From a virus, in the IMG/VR virus record IMGVR_UViG_3300033149_003257, positions 32,001 through 96,000 of that record: 64,000 bases of DNA; one strand, given 5' to 3'. Of this stretch, positions 741-10,121 are shown in pieces. How positions within the stretch are numbered: position 1 is the stretch's first letter; each line of letters begins with the position of its first letter. The notes below the pieces were generated by a model, which did no database searches, was not told the DNA's origin, and worked only from the letters and a program-made list of their open reading frames with translations. The translations under genes and the position numbers were made by a program.

Positions 741-1109
741 CTAATCTCCTTTACTTAATTGAATAAACATTGAATTTACTTTTTTATATTTTATAGATTT
801 CCACAAAGTATAATAACATTCATCAAAATAAAAAGTTCTCAAATTATTTTCAATTATATTTAAAACTGAATCTGTTGGTTCAACATTTAAATACTTATCA
901 GAAAGACAATAAATATGATTATCTGGATCACAATTTGGATGATAACCATTTAATATTATCTTTTTAATTTTTTGGTGATTCGTTATAATTAAATAACCAT
1001 TTATAATATGATCTTCTGGTAAATCTAAAATAACGTATAAACTTTTTTGGTAAATTATTCGATTTGGAATAATTCTTTTATTTATAAATAAAAAATCAAT
1101 TTTATCCAC
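741..1109 (-). CDS. putative minimal E2/UBC-fold ubiquitin-conjugating-like protein
   Basis: YHPNCDPDNHIYCL matches the E2 signature HPN-x7/8-C-L; lies directly downstream of a ThiF/E1 gene. Confidence 0.55.
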   Translation of the reverse strand: MDKIDFLFINKRIIPNRIIYQKSLYVILDLPEDHIINGYLIITNHQKIKKIILNGYHPNCDPDNHIYCLSDKYLNVEPTDSVLNIIENNLRTFYFDECYYTLWKSIKYKKVNSMFIQLSKGD

Positions 1110-1114
1110 TTTTT

Positions 1115-2086
1115 TTAAGCTGCTCCAGTTTCTTCAATTATTTCAACAAAAGAACCATCATCATCTTTATGAACACTAATAACAAAATTAGAAGTCATAA
1201 ATGGAAAATTGATCATAGAAGAAATAATAGATGTAACATCAGTAGAATCTCTTATATAACATTTAGGTATTGTTTTATTAAATAAGGAATGTTCTTTCTC
1301 ACCAAGACAAATTGTTAATGGATTCTCTTTATTTAATTTTATAATTGGAATAATATGTTCTGATAAATTTACTACTTTATCTGTTTTTTCAGTTGAATTA
1401 TAAATAATATCTATTCTTTTTGATATACTACTATCAATACTTTCTTGTAATAAATTATCTAAAAAATCTAAATGAACTCGATGTATTATTTGATTATTTA
1501 TAAAATAATAGATTTGTTTACTAGCAATTATTTGAGAAGCAAATGATGATGCTTTTTGTATATCAGATTTACTCAGTTTAATTATATATCTTCCTTCATA
1601 TTGATAATTTGTTTTTACATTTTTTCTGCAATCAATAATTAGACTTTTACCTGAAATATATAATCTAATATTTATTTCTTTTGATCTATTACATACAAAA
1701 TCTCTACAATCTATAACTAAATCACAATCAGAAAAACATTTGCATTTTTCTATATATTTATTTTTAAATTTTGTTACAGTTACATCATCTGATATAATTT
1801 CTTCTAAAACATCAACTTTAAACTTACCAATATGTTCATATTTATAAATAGATGTTTTTAGATTTTTATTTTCTACAATATCATTATCTATAATAACAAT
1901 TTCTTTTACATCACTTAAAAATGATAAGTATCTACATAAAAATCCACCTAAAGATCCCAATCCAATTATTGCAATTTTTCTTATTTTATATTTAAAATTA
2001 TCATTAAAGATATTAGTATATATAACATTTAATTTTTCTTCTTTAATCAAAGGTTCCTTATCATTTTGATATCTTTCCTCTTTCAC
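1115..2086 (-). CDS. divergent ThiF/E1-family adenylating enzyme with C-terminal extension
   Basis: IAIIGLGSLGG nucleotide-binding loop, IIDNDIVENKNL, IGKFKVDVL, DLVIDCRD. Confidence 0.8.
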   Translation of the reverse strand: MKEERYQNDKEPLIKEEKLNVIYTNIFNDNFKYKIRKIAIIGLGSLGGFLCRYLSFLSDVKEIVIIDNDIVENKNLKTSIYKYEHIGKFKVDVLEEIISDDVTVTKFKNKYIEKCKCFSDCDLVIDCRDFVCNRSKEINIRLYISGKSLIIDCRKNVKTNYQYEGRYIIKLSKSDIQKASSFASQIIASKQIYYFINNQIIHRVHLDFLDNLLQESIDSSISKRIDIIYNSTEKTDKVVNLSEHIIPIIKLNKENPLTICLGEKEHSLFNKTIPKCYIRDSTDVTSIISSMINFPFMTSNFVISVHKDDDGSFVEIIEETGAA

Positions 2087-3099: not shown

Positions 3100-3134
3100 A
3101 GGGGATAATATATACAAAATATATATTATCCCCT
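3100..3134. terminator. perfect 15-bp hairpin after the Ubl gene
   Basis: AGGGGATAATATATA-CAAAA-TATATATTATCCCCT. Confidence 0.6.
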
Positions 3135-3154: not shown

Positions 3155-3622
3155 CTATTTATAACCTTTTCCACCAGCTGGTTTTAGAAATTCTAAATTA
3201 TCACCAAATTGTAAAACATAACCAGATGGAACCTGTTTTCCATTAACTATTCCATCTGCCATTTTGTCAATATTTAAAACTTCCCGAAGAAATTCAGAAA
3301 CCGCACCAACTGTTTTTCCAACAACATCAAAACGACCAGATGCAGCACCACTAGAAACTAAAATTGTTGTTGTGCACCTATCACCAAATCGAGCAGATGG
3401 TTTTGTAAAGCTGCTAGTAAATACAGCACTTATGTCTGTCACTTTATTAGAATCAACATTACTAATAGAAGGAGATGCTCCATATTTTTCTAAAATTGCA
3501 TCAATAACTACATCTTTTCTTTTCTTAGACATACCCGGTATATCTAATTCATAAACACACATAGTTCTAAGATCAGCGACAGTCCTAGCTTCCAACTCTT
3601 CTCTTGTAAATTCTTTTTTCAT
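3155..3622 (-). CDS. ubiquitin-like (beta-grasp) protein with N-terminal Rho-N/HeH helical domain
   Basis: C-terminal IVNGKQV...YVLQFGDNLEFLKPAGGKG(YK) is MoaD/ThiS/PRTRC-C-like; N-terminal LEARTVADLRTMC..LDIPGMSKKRKDVVIDAIL is Rho-N-like. Confidence 0.8.
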   Translation of the reverse strand: MKKEFTREELEARTVADLRTMCVYELDIPGMSKKRKDVVIDAILEKYGASPSISNVDSNKVTDISAVFTSSFTKPSARFGDRCTTTILVSSGAASGRFDVVGKTVGAVSEFLREVLNIDKMADGIVNGKQVPSGYVLQFGDNLEFLKPAGGKGYK

Positions 3623-3634
3623 TTTTTTTTTCTC

Positions 3635-4342
3635 CTAAATAAAAGATTTTAAAAGTTTTTGCTTTGGTTTTCTAATTTTTGAGCTTGCTGACATAGTTTT
3701 TATATCAAAATATATTTCTGAGTAAGTATAATCTTTTAAAACTACAATATTATAAAAAGCCCAACACATAATTGTAGCAACTCCTAAATTAGTAAAATAT
3801 AATTGTGGATCAGACTGAGCTAATTCTTCACAAGACAAATCATCAGGATGATTATCTTGAGCATTAATTATTTCAGGATGATAATCCGTAACTTTTGGAG
3901 TTATATCAACATCATTATATCTAACATATATTTGGACATTTCCATCTGTATATTCATTACCACCAGAAATTAAAATTATATTTGATAATGTACTACAATA
4001 ATCTGAAACTATTCTTCTTGTTTTATGATTATCTACACATACAAAAACTATATCATTATTATAAATATAAGAAGAAATATTATCATCATTTAAAAATTGA
4101 GAAACAAAATTGATGTCTAAATTATTAAATTTTTTTCTCAATTCTTCCATTTTAACTTTTGATTTGTTACCTAACATCATAAAATCTTGTCTTTCAAAAT
4201 TTTTAGGTTCGTATGAATCACCATCAATTAATTTAATATGTGATTCAAAGTTATTTAAATAATTTAAAAATCTACATATTTTTTCTGATAATATAGAACC
4301 AATTCCACCCAAACCAATTATTTTAATATTAATACATTCCAT
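3635..4342 (-). CDS. ThiF/E1 ubiquitin-activating-like enzyme (PRTRC-type)
   Basis: IGLGGIGS, LIDGDSYEPKNFERQ, CVDNHKTR, ISGGNE, LSCEE (putative catalytic Cys), PQLYFTN. Confidence 0.9.
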   Translation of the reverse strand: MECINIKIIGLGGIGSILSEKICRFLNYLNNFESHIKLIDGDSYEPKNFERQDFMMLGNKSKVKMEELRKKFNNLDINFVSQFLNDDNISSYIYNNDIVFVCVDNHKTRRIVSDYCSTLSNIILISGGNEYTDGNVQIYVRYNDVDITPKVTDYHPEIINAQDNHPDDLSCEELAQSDPQLYFTNLGVATIMCWAFYNIVVLKDYTYSEIYFDIKTMSASSKIRKPKQKLLKSFI

Positions 4343-4362: not shown

Positions 4363-5382
4363 TTAAAATTTCAATTTATTGGAATATTCTCTATTTGTTT
4401 TAATAATATCTTCTTGGGAATTATCACTAAAATTATAATTATCTTCATCAACATAAAAAAAATCTTCAACATCTACATCTAAATAATCTTCATTATCTTC
4501 ATCCCATTCTTCTATTTGTAATTTCATTTTATAATTTCTAAATACACATTCATTACATGGATTATATTCTTCATCTTCAATATTATTATTAAATAAGCTA
4601 TAATTAATATTTCCACTTGATAAGAAAGAAGAAGAAAATGGAAAAGATTGTTGATTATTATAAAAACTATAAGGGGACATTGAAAAATTGGAAACATAAA
4701 CTCTTTCAGATACATTTTTAAGCCAATCATTAACATTATAATTACATTTATTTTCATTTATTAAATATCTTAATTTTTTAAAATTATCTACTTCTTTAGA
4801 ATCTTCAGATAAAACAAGACCATCAATATATAAAGTTGGATCTACAATAAATCTAGAACCATTCGAAACTATACATGCAGATATACTAACATTTTCAGTA
4901 GGAATATTACCAATTGTTATATGTAAACCATCAAAATATTTTTCATCGTTGATATCTATACCGGAATGAAAAGCACTCATAAAACCATGAGAATGTATAG
5001 TTGCAATCATAATATAATTTTTTGGGCTTGCATTTCTTGTATATTTAATACCGCCTGGAGAAACTTCTTGCAATGGAGAATCGAAAAAATAACTATTATC
5101 TAACAAATTATAATATATAACTATAATTGACTCTCCTTTATACAAATCATATACTTTTTTGAAAAAAGTTATAATTTTATAAAATTCTTCGTTTGAAATT
5201 TTTGGAATATCTAATTTTGCAGAAGATGAAATACTATTTAATATAGAAATATTATCAACTGGTGTTATACTTTCTAATATCCCAACTTTCTTTTTTAAAA
5301 AAATACCTTCTTTAGCAACTATATAAAATATATCATCATCTGGAATCTCTTCTATTCCATTATTAATAAAAATTTTAAACAC
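4363..5382 (-). CDS. JAB/JAMM metallopeptidase (deubiquitinase-like) with acidic tail
   Basis: TIHSHGFMSAFHSGIDINDE = HxH-x7-S-xx-D JAMM motif; upstream Glu in KGESIIV; DGLHITIG. Confidence 0.9.
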   Translation of the reverse strand: MFKIFINNGIEEIPDDDIFYIVAKEGIFLKKKVGILESITPVDNISILNSISSSAKLDIPKISNEEFYKIITFFKKVYDLYKGESIIVIYYNLLDNSYFFDSPLQEVSPGGIKYTRNASPKNYIMIATIHSHGFMSAFHSGIDINDEKYFDGLHITIGNIPTENVSISACIVSNGSRFIVDPTLYIDGLVLSEDSKEVDNFKKLRYLINENKCNYNVNDWLKNVSERVYVSNFSMSPYSFYNNQQSFPFSSSFLSSGNINYSLFNNNIEDEEYNPCNECVFRNYKMKLQIEEWDEDNEDYLDVDVEDFFYVDEDNYNFSDNSQEDIIKTNREYSNKLKF

Positions 5383-5387
5383 TATTT

Positions 5388-8042
5388 TTATTCTCCTATA
5401 ATATTAATAATTTCTTTGGGGTCTACCATAATCCCATACTCTCTACGAACATTCGTATCTTTTATTTCTGTATAAGAATTATGAAAAGTTGGAATTACTT
5501 TTTTAAATTGATTTTGATTTACAATTTGTTTTAAACTTTTTCTCGGATTTAATATTCCATATCTAGATATTATACCATTTTTTCTAAAATGTCGTGCATA
5601 AGAATGAGAATACTCATCTTTTATAATATTGACTAAATATTTTTTGTGTAATGGTTCATAACTAGAATTTTCTAACATAGTTATGTTATTATTCATAGTC
5701 TCAAAAATGTCACCACCTTGAAAACCAAAAGTAGAGAATAAAATAGAATCATGATTTATTTTTGACCATGATGGCATATCTTTTGTATATAGTTCAAAAT
5801 TTTCTAACAAATCATCAAACCAAATAGTACAACAGTTTGAACATAAAACTAAAGGTTGATTACAACCAGTATCTGTTAAAAAAGCAACAATAATATTTGC
5901 TTTACTTTTTGGAAAACATTTTATTCCTTTTACCTTTGCTTTTATCTTAGTTCCAACTTTTACACCATTATATTCCGAAGAAACATGTCTAATTGTTCCA
6001 GCATTTATTATTCCAGTTCTAAAACTAATAAAATTTTTCTCATAATTAATATTATCATTACTATTCATTGAAATTACCAAATGATGAAAATCATTTACTG
6101 AAAAATTTGTAATTTGTCTAATTTTTAACATATCTACTGGATTTCTCCAATCTACAAAAATAACTTTATCTCCTAGTGAAAATTGTATATCTAAATCAAA
6201 ACTTCTGATTTTAACATGATCATCAGCTAATATATCTTGTATATTAAAATTTCTATTATAATCTAATTTATCAAGTTGATCAATATAATATCCATCTTTT
6301 CTAACATTTATAATTAAATTCTTACTACTATGCTGTAAATATAATCCATTTCTTACAGTTGAAACCATATTAGCATCATTATTTTCAGTTTCATTAACAA
6401 TATTATGATAATTAAAAAAACTATTTATGTCATAAATTTCTACTTCTTTATTACTGTTTTCAAATATACATCCTAAAACATTATCTTCTGTTTCTGTATC
6501 AAAAGCAACAAATTTTAATAATTTATAAAAATGAATAATTGGACTAAATATTCTTCTACTTTTTTTCATACGTTCATTAAAATAATATTTCTTTCCTATT
6601 TCCAATTTAGTACCATTATTTAATACTATATTATTTAAATCTATATGCTCAGCGACAATAGAATCAGATAAATAATTATAATTATCTGTTATTATTTCTG
6701 CTTTACCATCGTAATTAATTCTAATTTTATTTACCTTATTATAAATACCTTCTATTGGAAAAGTAATTTTAATAATATCTCCGCTTTTTATTGTTACACC
6801 ATTTTTTAAAATAATTTCAGATAAAGAATTTGTATCAAAAATTTGATTCATATATTGCATAAATTTATTAGTTAATTTATACTTTACTACTTTACTATTT
6901 TCTCTATCTTCAAAATTAATATATCTAACTTCTTCAAAATTATTCTCAAAACTATTCTTAAAAATTAGAGAATATATATATTTAACTCTTCCATTATTAA
7001 ATTTAACGGAATCTCCAACAGACAATATACGATCATTTAAATAAAGATTTTTTGAAAAACTTTCTACAAGTGTATAATATTCTTCACCTTCTTCACTTAT
7101 TTCTAATTCATCTACAACATCAATACCTTCACTAAAAAAAGAAACTATATCAAAATAACCTATAATATTTTGTCTGTTTTTCTTGATCTTTTTTTGTATA
7201 AGTGTTTCTACTAATCCCTTCAAATGGACGTTAGCCTTTAACCAATTTACATTAAATATAAACATTGGATCTTTCATAGAATAATAAGACCATGTTAAAA
7301 AATCAGATAACTCTAAAGGTCCTTCTCGTTCGTAATCAATATAATGATATGAATAATCTTTATTAAATATATTTTTCCAGAATGCATTAATATAAGCTTC
7401 AATAGTTTCGTTACAGTTTCCATATGTATATTTATTAGTAATTTCGCCTAAACAAACAGAATAATTTGTATTAATATTTGTTAAATTCGGTTTTAAAAGG
7501 TCATCTTCTAAAGAACCAAATGGAGATAATTTAAAAAATACTTTCATTTCTTTTACTATAGGACCATCAAAAATAAATATATATATAATATAAGGAAATG
7601 ATAAAGATATTTTGTATGGAGATTTATTTTCTTGAAGGAAATTTTGTAAATTAAATATATCTATTTTTCCTTCAATTTTTAATTTTTCAATTATAGCTTC
7701 AAAATTAAAATCTATAAAAATAGTTCTTATTCTTGGTTGTTCTTCAATAACAAATATTTTTTTATGTGTTAAATCTTTAAAAAATCTACAGTTTTTAGGA
7801 AGCAACATATCTAAATCAGCATGTGAATCTTGTATTAATATTTTCTGCATATGCTTAAAAAAATCACTTGTGAGTAATGAAAATTTATTTGAAAAAGGTA
7901 CTACATTAGCTTCAGCTTCATTGATATCTTTTTCTACTAAATTTAATTCAGATATTTTTTCATTACTAAATGCTTTTATATTATATAAACCTGTTTTATT
8001 TCTATCAATAATTATACAATCATTTGTTGACATTGTTGACAT
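5388..8042 (-). CDS. large protein with prokaryotic E2-fold (family D / PRTRC-B-like) domain and repeated beta-rich C-terminal modules
   Basis: LSFPYIIYIF...VFFK...LLKPNLTNINTNYSVCLG...INAFWKNIFNKD matches the P-x-x-N...VC-G...FW-x-S/N-x-F pattern; first gene of the E2-JAB-E1-Ubl operon. Confidence 0.75.
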   Translation of the reverse strand: MSTMSTNDCIIIDRNKTGLYNIKAFSNEKISELNLVEKDINEAEANVVPFSNKFSLLTSDFFKHMQKILIQDSHADLDMLLPKNCRFFKDLTHKKIFVIEEQPRIRTIFIDFNFEAIIEKLKIEGKIDIFNLQNFLQENKSPYKISLSFPYIIYIFIFDGPIVKEMKVFFKLSPFGSLEDDLLKPNLTNINTNYSVCLGEITNKYTYGNCNETIEAYINAFWKNIFNKDYSYHYIDYEREGPLELSDFLTWSYYSMKDPMFIFNVNWLKANVHLKGLVETLIQKKIKKNRQNIIGYFDIVSFFSEGIDVVDELEISEEGEEYYTLVESFSKNLYLNDRILSVGDSVKFNNGRVKYIYSLIFKNSFENNFEEVRYINFEDRENSKVVKYKLTNKFMQYMNQIFDTNSLSEIILKNGVTIKSGDIIKITFPIEGIYNKVNKIRINYDGKAEIITDNYNYLSDSIVAEHIDLNNIVLNNGTKLEIGKKYYFNERMKKSRRIFSPIIHFYKLLKFVAFDTETEDNVLGCIFENSNKEVEIYDINSFFNYHNIVNETENNDANMVSTVRNGLYLQHSSKNLIINVRKDGYYIDQLDKLDYNRNFNIQDILADDHVKIRSFDLDIQFSLGDKVIFVDWRNPVDMLKIRQITNFSVNDFHHLVISMNSNDNINYEKNFISFRTGIINAGTIRHVSSEYNGVKVGTKIKAKVKGIKCFPKSKANIIVAFLTDTGCNQPLVLCSNCCTIWFDDLLENFELYTKDMPSWSKINHDSILFSTFGFQGGDIFETMNNNITMLENSSYEPLHKKYLVNIIKDEYSHSYARHFRKNGIISRYGILNPRKSLKQIVNQNQFKKVIPTFHNSYTEIKDTNVRREYGIMVDPKEIINIIGE

Positions 8043-8775: not shown

Positions 8776-9081
8776 TCACCTCCGTCTAATACTAAACTTT
8801 TTAGTTGGTGTTTCTAACCATTCTACTTTTTGGAATGGGACAGATCTCCAATCATTTTTTTCTAAATCAAAAACATGAATAATTTTATTATCTTTTAATA
8901 ACTTTAAAATTTTTTCTATATTTACAGATTTTGGTTTTTTGGAATCAGGTATTTTATCAAAATTTAAAGTACATTTCATAATTCTTATACTTCCATCTTG
9001 TTTTTTAAACCTTATATTTACCGAATCCTCTCCTCGAACTTTTCTCCAAAATTCTATTACACTATCTATAAAGTCTTCCAT
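8776..9081 (-). CDS. WYL_2/Sm-like SH3-fold protein
   Basis: FKKQDGSIRIMKCT...IHVFDLEKNDWRS motif. Confidence 0.75.
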   Translation of the reverse strand: MEDFIDSVIEFWRKVRGEDSVNIRFKKQDGSIRIMKCTLNFDKIPDSKKPKSVNIEKILKLLKDNKIIHVFDLEKNDWRSVPFQKVEWLETPTKKFSIRRR

Positions 9082-9095
9082 ATTCCTCCATTAAA

Positions 9096-10121
9096 TTATA
9101 TCCTTTTTTCTCGGTGCATAACAATTTCTGATAAACTAGGGTTTTTTTCAACAATATTTGACATTAACATACATGTCCAATTACATTTTCTACAAAGTTC
9201 TTTTTTATTCTTTTTAATAAAAGAATTTAAAAATGGACTTATTTCTTTATCTTTCAAAAATATTTTATCTGCTGGAAATACTCCAATACTTCCTTTTATT
9301 CGCAAACATAATCTAACCGTTCCATCAGCATCTATTGATAAATTATGTAAATTATTTTCAATTTTACAATCCATCTCAGATGGAAGTATATTTATAATTT
9401 TATTTAAAAAGTTAGATCCCATATGTACATCTAAATTCTCTTTTTGTATTAAATCTATTTGCTCTTCTAAAATTTTTGTTCTACTTACTAAGAGACTTTT
9501 ATCAGAAACATTAGAAAAATCATAATATGGAGTTTTTGCTATATCAATAAAAGTTATAGAACTACTTATATTATAGTCAGATAAATATTTTACTAGAGAA
9601 TATAAATACTCAACATTATTATTATCAACTGTAATTTCAGCAACTAGATCTTTTATAATTCCTTTATATTTAGAAAGATTTATTAATCCCTGTGTACTTT
9701 TTTTCATTCTGTCAGAAAATTCTTCATCAGAGAAAATTAGTGGATCAATTGAAGAAGTCAATCCAGAAATATATGGTACACTAATCATTAAATCTTCTAA
9801 TTTATCTTGAACTTCTTCTGAATTATTTGTAATAATTGTATAATGTATACCTTTCTTATTACAATATACAACTATTTCTGCAAGATCTTCTCTTAATAAT
9901 GGTTCACCACCATAAAATATATGAAACATATCTGAATTATGGTTATAAAATTTTTCTAAACAATTTATAACAAACGAAGTAGACATTTCATTTTCATAAT
10001 AATATTTCATATTTGGATATGCTTTTGGTTTATCTTTATAATTTCTAACAATTCCACAATAAGAACATCTAAGATTACACTTTCTTGTTAATAACCAATT
10101 AACAATTCTAATTTCTGACAT
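9096..10121 (-). CDS. radical SAM protein
   Basis: CNLRCSYC, YGGEPLLR, IITN, C-terminal Cys cluster (CL...CRKCNWTC). Confidence 0.9.
   Translation of the reverse strand: MSEIRIVNWLLTRKCNLRCSYCGIVRNYKDKPKAYPNMKYYYENEMSTSFVINCLEKFYNHNSDMFHIFYGGEPLLREDLAEIVVYCNKKGIHYTIITNNSEEVQDKLEDLMISVPYISGLTSSIDPLIFSDEEFSDRMKKSTQGLINLSKYKGIIKDLVAEITVDNNNVEYLYSLVKYLSDYNISSSITFIDIAKTPYYDFSNVSDKSLLVSRTKILEEQIDLIQKENLDVHMGSNFLNKIINILPSEMDCKIENNLHNLSIDADGTVRLCLRIKGSIGVFPADKIFLKDKEISPFLNSFIKKNKKELCRKCNWTCMLMSNIVEKNPSLSEIVMHREKRI

Follow-up and report, generated by a model that had tools for sequence, protein, structure and literature searches.

What would a virus gain from a ubiquitin-like protein (Ubl) that carries a putative nucleic-acid-binding domain at its N-terminus and two extra residues after its C-terminal glycine? 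This question is raised by a gene at positions 3155-3622, on the minus strand, of the window analysed here, a 64,000-nucleotide stretch corresponding to bases 32001-96000 of an IMG/VR virus record of 151,964 bp. With the record only about 49% complete, some partner genes may lie outside the available sequence. The window has a G+C content of 24.5% and also encodes an SbcC/Rad50-like ATPase, an Mre11-type phosphoesterase, a helicase and pieces of a multisubunit RNA polymerase that are about 26% identical to their counterparts in phiKZ-type and other jumbo phages. These neighbouring genes and polymerase pieces suggest that the element is a distant, uncultured relative of the jumbo phages that encode an RNA polymerase.

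Gene layout and the N-terminal HeH domain

The Ubl open reading frame is a real gene, with an ATG start 12 nt past the stop codon of the preceding E1 gene and an AGGAGA ribosome-binding site ahead of it. It encodes 155 amino acids plus a stop codon, arranged as a helix-extended-helix (HeH) domain, a linker, a conserved motif, a beta-grasp and a Tyr-Lys cap. Pfam, the structural model and the alignment of homologues all agree with the layout given in a preliminary description of this DNA, which had read a Rho-N/HeH domain, a linker and a beta-grasp with an AGGKG-YK end. Family-specific HMMs detected no second copy of the beta-grasp or of the HeH in the window. Just downstream of the Ubl stop codon, between it and the next gene, lies a perfect 15-bp, terminator-like hairpin (3100-3134, scored on the plus strand), which likely marks the end of the transcription unit; its T run is on the plus side, and the genes here are on the minus strand.

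The Ubl belongs to a sizeable family of uncultured viral proteins. A word-indexed search returned 273 homologues, which are 143-221 aa long; for the 120 that were listed, identities lie between 50% and 62%. A profile was also run exhaustively against 1.84 billion cluster representatives, with clusters formed at 50% identity; 1072 of them scored E<=1e-3, 260 reached E<=1e-10 and 69 reached E<=1e-30. The corresponding ESM Atlas clusters are annotated as "hypothetical protein" and are 98-100% viral, and 79 viral loci in IMG/VR carry a homologue. When the Ubl was searched by tblastn in 50,697 phage records, no match emerged, and megablast of a 12-kb segment gave none either; by the tblastn result, no cultured phage in that collection carries this Ubl. 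PHROGs likewise holds no family for the Ubl, the JAB or the E2.

Residues 7-47 (3482-3604, minus strand) are predicted to form a three-helix domain with the helix-extended-helix fold. Pfam Rho_N (PF07498) matched residues 9-46 of the window Ubl with E=5.5e-4 and 20.3 bits, or 22.5 bits in the genome search, against a gathering score of 24.9. Among the 36 aligned homologues, 22 matched Rho_N at E<=1e-3 (best 3.4e-7), and two relatives with two HeH copies (P0126 and P0151) reached 50.5 and 59.9 bits. An AlphaFold2 model built from this 36-sequence alignment places helices at residues 7-11, 15-25 and 36-47 with a pLDDT of 86-95. When this model was compared with 48,161 PDB chains by VIA-align, the top structural match was the N-terminal domain of Rho (1a62_A; Z 5.9, rmsd 2.1 Å over 46 residues, 24% identity), followed at lower rank by the SAP domains of FAN1 and Hcc-1 and the C-terminal domain of YqbF. 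The VIA-align Z-scores of the Ubl and E2 models are modest (5-6), in a range that may reflect common structural arrangements, and the Foldseek E-values of both models are weak, so that VIA-align was needed to bring out the Rho_N and E2 folds clearly. A sequence-based profile search of the PDB with the Ubl yielded chance-level matches only (DUN1 FHA, E 0.018; Rho, E 1.9). Sequence and structural predictions for the HeH nevertheless agree, despite these modest scores.

Conservation within the domain centres on G30, K33 and K36, which are invariant, and on K34, present in 89% of homologues; the mean net charge is +2.2. The preliminary description had named absence of the N-terminal domain from close homologues as a finding that would speak against it. 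The domain is in fact retained in 77 of the 79 viral loci, as a single copy in 75 and a double copy in 2, and of the two remaining genes one is cut by a contig end and the other appears broken. The seemingly broken Ubl gene (L080:7763-8141) consists of a 101-aa ORF holding the HeH only, with the beta-grasp match (residues 107-153) lying outside it. As a separate observation, residue 22 (3557-3559) is Cys in 91% of homologues and in the window, and residue 91 (3350-3352) is Cys in 86% of homologues and Ser in the window.

A variable, low-complexity linker follows at residues 48-65 (3428-3481, minus strand; pLDDT about 48-51), ranging from 12 to 83 aa in relatives and rich in A, G, S and K. Residues 66-85 (3368-3427, minus strand) form a conserved 20-residue motif with the consensus F.S.LTKP.A.FG.RTTT, in which S70, P75, G80 and T85 are conserved at 97%, 95%, 96% and 99%, respectively; the motif has low model confidence and was recognised in some relatives only. 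The model shows a disordered stretch across residues 50-85. The Ser-rich linker proposed earlier thus holds in composition, with 8 Ser and 5 Thr among the 38 residues 48-85, and needs correction in extent, as its second half is the conserved motif.

The HeH is expected, from its distribution in the family, to be an add-on payload or targeting module, since it is doubled in some relatives, absent in distant ones and joined through a linker of free length. Beta-grasp-only forms also adjoin E1, JAB and E2 genes, which argues that the enzymes need no HeH for recognition. To our knowledge, nucleic-acid binding has not been proven for Rho_N-type HeH domains in every context; a role as a nucleic-acid tether is plausible for this one.

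The beta-grasp, its C-terminal end and related architectures

In the model, residues 86-153 (68 aa; 3164-3367, minus strand) adopt a ThiS/MoaD-like beta-grasp fold, with strands at 86-91, 94-99, 124-126 and 143-145, a helix at 105-116 and a pLDDT of 84-91. Its fold matches, all of them weak, include SAMP1, MoaD, TGS, ThiS-like proteins, ubiquitin and ISG15. VIA-align placed ISG15, ubiquitin, MoaD and SAMP1 at Z 4.3-5.2, and Foldseek of the Ubl model returned TGS, SAMP1, MoaD and TtuB at E of about 0.1. Pfam ThiS scored 16.3 bits on the window Ubl, below its cut-off of 22.5, and TGS also matched weakly at the C-terminus; on a relative with tandem beta-grasps (P0218), ThiS reached 67.8 bits.

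The protein ends, as had been described, in AGGKG-YK: Gly153 is followed by Tyr154-Lys155 (3158-3163, minus strand; codons TAT AAA) and a TAG stop codon (3155-3157). K147, G150, K152 and G153 are invariant in the alignment of homologues, and Gly151 of the window is unusual, given the family consensus PAG[K/R]KG. A C-terminal Gly-Gly is absent; the sequence reads Lys152-Gly153 and then Tyr-Lys, and the penultimate residue before the cap is always Lys.

A survey of homologues ending exactly at KG, which the preliminary description had proposed, covered 169 distinct sequences: 87 stop at KG and 82 are tailed. The tails consist of one Cys in 65 cases, Phe in 5 and other sequences of 1-7 residues in 12, with YK occurring once. 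On a 176-sequence tree made without the tails, the tail state was gained or lost at least 33 times. Roughly three in four tails are a Cys. Of 49 untailed Ubl genes, 48 have TAA or TAG as their stop codon. The Cys cap is encoded by TGC followed by TAA or TAG; it is therefore a genuine extra codon, and TGA read-through as its origin was ruled out.

Distant relatives bear on how such ends may be processed. Among the best 149 representatives, 91 have the HeH-beta-grasp architecture, 18 have HeH-HeH-beta-grasp, 27 have the beta-grasp alone or with another N-terminus, and 8 are head-to-tail arrays of 2-4 units; the HeH is absent from about 35. Every unit of the tandem arrays P0166, P0218, P0219 and P0229 ends in G-x-K-G and abuts the next unit. 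Arrays also occur in P0178, P0257, L085:1773-2201 and L086:791-1423, and short tails of the array proteins are C, ESK, MLIE and VVRIG. In L085, the poly-Ubl array gene sits in an operon with E2, JAB and E1; P0166, which has four tandem units, found no relative in IMG/VR. Three further loci encode a Ubl-E2 fusion as a single ORF of 355-382 aa (L122:301-1368, L126:4881-5984 and L135:1-1149), an arrangement that implies cleavage after the Ubl. Arrays and fusions mirror polyubiquitin and the BubAB precursor, so that cleavage after Lys-Gly is the natural reading.

The preliminary description had regarded the terminal glycine as masked. Variable tails with at least 33 changes, poly-Ubl arrays and Ubl-E2 fusions near JAB genes lend this view strong comparative support, and by this evidence Gly153 would be the mature end and the tail a removable cap.

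In metagenomes, HeH-less beta-grasp relatives occur in compact operons of E2 (210-280 aa), JAB, E1 and Ubl. A related operon in L082, L083 and L133 has the order JAB-E1-Ubl followed by two paralogous E2 proteins of about 900 aa. The N-terminus of the 139-aa Ubl in this operon is HeH-like, and Lys-Ala replaces Lys-Gly at its C-terminal end; L083 is a 234-kb contig binned as Candidatus Uhrbacteria. The cultured Bacillus jumbo phage vB_BauM_KLEB27-3 (L081; OM634661.1 161722-174378; 217 kb) encodes a trio of E2-like gp196, JAB gp195 (annotated with a PRTRC_A domain) and ThiF gp194, and no Ubl or beta-grasp of the HeH-Ubl family was detectable in it. Its E1 ends in ...TTTEA, and similar ThiF genes are found on large Bacillus and Clostridium plasmids.

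The operon, a proposed mechanism and its rivals

The Ubl is the last gene of an operon whose order, E2-JAB-E1-Ubl, is kept in about 75 IMG/VR loci. The ThiF-type E1 (235 aa; 3635-4342, minus strand) matched Pfam ThiF at 5e-19, and its best NCBIfam match was PRTRC_ThiF (2.9e-13; 49.7 bits against a cut-off of 144.75). GxGGxG, R51-Q52, D104 and Cys171 are invariant in 66 homologues, and we infer that Cys171 is the thioester site. The JAB/JAMM metallopeptidase (339 aa; 4363-5382, minus strand) matched Prok-JAB at 2.2e-4 and the NCBIfam model PRTRC_A at 1.1e-8 (34.9 bits against a cut-off of 101.8); E84, H130-x-H132, S140 and D143 are invariant. Across L002-L079 its homologues span about 300 to 627 aa, owing to a C-terminal extension that differs between them, and C276 and C279 (window numbering) are conserved at 92%.

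The E2 protein (884 aa; 5388-8042, minus strand) has a Prok-E2_D-like N-terminal third, followed by a C-terminal extension of about 600 aa. Among 18 homologues of residues 1-280, 12 matched Prok-E2_D (best 4e-7). The model, with a pLDDT of 82.9, had almost exclusively E2/UEV chains among its best 30 VIA-align matches (Z 4-5.2 over about 125 aa), including the bacterial proteins CdnG-E2, BubB and Cap2. The signature N189-x7-Cys197 is invariant in homologues; catalytic-residue invariance was judged over 60-67 homologues. Profile matches and the model together indicate that this protein holds a predicted E2-fold domain with an invariant Cys.

The wider gene order, SbcC-like/radical SAM/WYL_2/p123/E2/JAB/E1/Ubl/.../second E1/mini-E2/RNAP beta', is likewise conserved, and its genes from SbcC-like to RNAP beta' recur in 72-79 of the 79 viral loci. 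Downstream of the Ubl, positions 741-2086 (minus strand) encode a divergent second ThiF-type E1 (323 aa, with a conserved C-terminal T-G-x-A end) and a mini-E2 of 122 aa with an HPN...C pattern; both are kept in 73-79 of 79 loci. Directly upstream of the E2 gene, positions 8776-10121 (minus strand) encode a radical SAM protein (341 aa) and a WYL_2/Sm-like SH3 protein (101 aa). This pair is kept in 65 of 79 loci and could be either part of the E2-JAB-E1-Ubl functional module or independent of it.

JAB is present in all 73 loci that cover its position, including 46 in which the Ubl is untailed. Since JAB stands beside untailed Ubls, trimming cannot be its sole role, and the cap-trimming argument taken alone does not explain its presence; a further role would most simply be deconjugation. 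The assignment of trimming to JAB draws on its invariant JAMM motif, its constant adjacency and precedent.

With E2, JAB, E1 and Ubl travelling together in a large jumbo-phage clade, we judge it slightly better than an even chance that the Ubl is the modifier of a phage-borne conjugation system, in which JAB trims the cap, E1 and E2 transfer the Ubl, and the HeH places it on nucleic acid. The Tyr-Lys cap would block the carboxylate of Gly153 until it is cut off, most likely by JAB. Gly153 would then be adenylated by E1, and the Ubl would be passed via Cys171 to Cys197 of the E2 and onward to target lysines. Lying at the N-terminus, the HeH would, by this proposal, stay on the conjugate, where it would most likely place the Ubl or its target on nucleic acid; it may tether the target, concentrate conjugation on DNA- or RNA-associated proteins, or do both. 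As JAB is kept where no cap exists, it probably also reverses conjugation. A bolder version holds that these jumbo phages use a cascade of their own to anchor or relocate proteins on DNA or RNA through a covalently attached HeH, with neither degradation nor steric block involved, and that JAB both arms the modifier and erases the mark; we offer this tentatively and consider it on the unlikely side. In that case the cascade might act on nucleoid or transcription factors of the host, or on the polymerase and replication proteins of the phage.

Other readings accommodate parts of this evidence. The HeH may instead be a protein-protein docking module, contacting the E2 extension, the nearby phage RNA polymerase or a virion or host protein, with the conjugation chemistry unchanged. 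HeH-Ubls do occur mostly with E2s of 800-970 aa and beta-grasp-only relatives mostly with E2s of 210-280 aa, and RNA polymerase genes lie directly next to the operon. Exceptions to the Ubl-E2 pairing exist, however, as L124 and L144 combine E2s of 720-770 aa with 68-aa Ubls; moreover, the invariant G30/K33/K36 loop, K34 at 89% and the positive charge fit the pattern of nucleic-acid-binding HeH/SAP domains, and the best structural match is an RNA-binding domain, that of Rho. Docking appears improbable to us. A further reading questions conjugation itself: Tyr-Lys would be neutral stop-codon drift and the Ubl would act non-covalently, for example by holding E1, E2 and JAB together on DNA or by luring host Ubl defences away. 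That half of the homologues are untailed, that YK is unique to this phage and that no conjugate has ever been observed are all compatible with drift. Such a scheme nonetheless sits poorly with a Lys-Gly that is invariant at the end in every architecture, with an adjoining E1 that has a complete set of adenylation motifs, with a single residue, Cys, encoded by a genuine extra codon, accounting for about three quarters of tails, and with tandem arrays that need cutting after KG to give units. We regard it as very unlikely.

The Ubl could also be a sulfur carrier that bears a thiocarboxylate at Gly153, as do ThiS, MoaD and TtuB, while the HeH brings in a nucleic-acid substrate and the E2-like protein and JAB are accessory. 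By sequence and fold the beta-grasp is indeed closest to ThiS, MoaD, SAMP1 and TtuB, two homologues are annotated at source as "molybdopterin converting factor small subunit", and a conserved radical SAM gene lies about 5.5 kb upstream. Yet the 152-kb record contains neither a rhodanese nor a cysteine desulfurase, although it is incomplete and the host could supply them; its sole PP-loop match is sub-threshold and about 110 kb away, and the E1 lacks a rhodanese domain. Every locus keeps a JAMM peptidase and an E2 whose Cys is invariant, and the poly-Ubl arrays and Ubl-E2 fusions of relatives are features of conjugation systems. Sulfur transfer consequently seems to us a highly improbable function, and we retain conjugation as the preferred reading.

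Bacterial Ubl conjugation has so far been studied as an antiphage defence of the host (Bil, CBASS Cap2 and Bub), and the proposed conjugation system would reverse this arrangement: the full E1-E2-JAB-Ubl set belongs to the conserved core of a large group of uncultured jumbo phages, and its modifier has an HeH of its own. If the HeH binds nucleic acid, the modifier would be a covalent tag functioning in localisation and would open the uncharacterised PRTRC/6d class to experiment. Relatives with poly-Ubl arrays or Ubl-E2 fusions further point to precursors being processed, in the manner of polyubiquitin, in viruses of prokaryotes or in mobile elements. With Lys-Gly as the mature end, a modified lysine would keep one Gly (+57.02 Da) after trypsin digestion, a mass identical to that of carbamidomethylation, so that standard di-Gly proteomics would miss the conjugates.

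Comparison with known Ubl systems

The four-part gene set of the phage operon is shared with PRTRC loci and with operon type 6d, which comprises a Prok_Ub Ubl, a Prok-E2_D E2, a JAB with JAB-N and a ThiF-type E1 (Iyer, Burroughs and Aravind 2006; PMC1779556). The best family matches of the phage E1 (PRTRC_ThiF), JAB (PRTRC_A) and E2 (Prok-E2_D) are all PRTRC components. In two canonical plasmid PRTRC loci, protein B corresponds to Prok-E2_D (106 bits for a canonical protein B), protein A to DUF2016 plus Prok-JAB, and protein C to Prok_Ub. PRTRC models score best on the phage proteins, yet far below the NCBIfam cut-offs, which marks these proteins as relatives rather than members. For the Ubl, identity with PRTRC protein C/Prok_Ub was ruled out by HMM and profile comparison: TIGR03738 and PF14454 had no match in the record, nor in 10 beta-grasp-only relatives at E<=1, and hhalign against a canonical protein C gave a probability of 0.1%. 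ParB_N had no match in the 152-kb record, itself about 49% complete. The two canonical C proteins end in TKG and thus have a Lys-Gly end in common with the phage Ubl. The earlier statement that PRTRC Ubls end in GxKG is borne out for the terminal KG, found in protein C of both annotated plasmids (VKTKG and LGTKG), and only partly for the full pattern, as LGTKG alone fits G-x-K-G. The phage system differs from PRTRC in its ThiS/MoaD-like, HeH-bearing Ubl, in its 884-aa E2 and in being encoded by a virus. Our literature search found no experimentally known function for PRTRC, and no phage-encoded HeH-Ubl or phage PRTRC-like system.

Bil resembles the phage system in having separate genes for E1, E2, a JAB-type peptidase and a Ubl, and in its thioester-type catalytic Cys. 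However, Bil defends the host by tagging a phage tail protein, the system described here is carried by the phage itself, and the protein families differ. Some Type II Bil Ubls bear extra N-terminal domains (10.1101/2024.11.21.623966); those published for bacterial Ubls of the Bil type are N/G-rich tails, coiled coils and DUF1508, in contrast to the HeH of the phage Ubl. The HeH itself shares with the N-domain of the Rho termination factor and with SAP and LEM domains a three-helix arrangement with a conserved Gly-x-[ST]-Lys-Lys loop. In Rho it is accompanied by an OB-fold RNA-binding subdomain, whereas the phage HeH stands without one and is fused to a Ubl, an architecture that our literature search did not find.

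In Bub systems (6E/DUF6527), the BubAB Ubl-E2 fusion is cut by the peptidase BubCD, which frees the Ubl (PMC11601596), and the same maturation was predicted for JAB by Iyer et al. 2006 (PMC1779556). This precursor logic is also that of the phage family's distant Ubl-E2 fusions and multi-beta-grasp relatives. Bub differs in forming Tyr/Ser oxyesters without a catalytic Cys, whereas Cys171 of the phage E1 and Cys197 of the E2 are invariant, and the peptidase of the phage system, unlike that of Bub, is a separate JAMM enzyme.

Head-to-tail arrays and short removable C-terminal caps are found in eukaryotic polyubiquitin and capped precursors as they are in the phage family, and in the archaeal SAMP/HvJAMM1 comparison, the beta-grasps of SAMP1 and MoaD are among the best fold matches of the phage Ubl. 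There the end is Gly-Gly, whereas that of the phage Ubl is Lys-Gly. Ribosomal-protein fusions to ubiquitin are C-terminal and are released; the extra domain of the phage Ubl is N-terminal, so it would remain after conjugation. Collectively, these sequence comparisons indicate that the phage system is an architectural variant within a PRTRC-like branch of prokaryotic Ubl systems, with PRTRC/6d as its nearest known relative.
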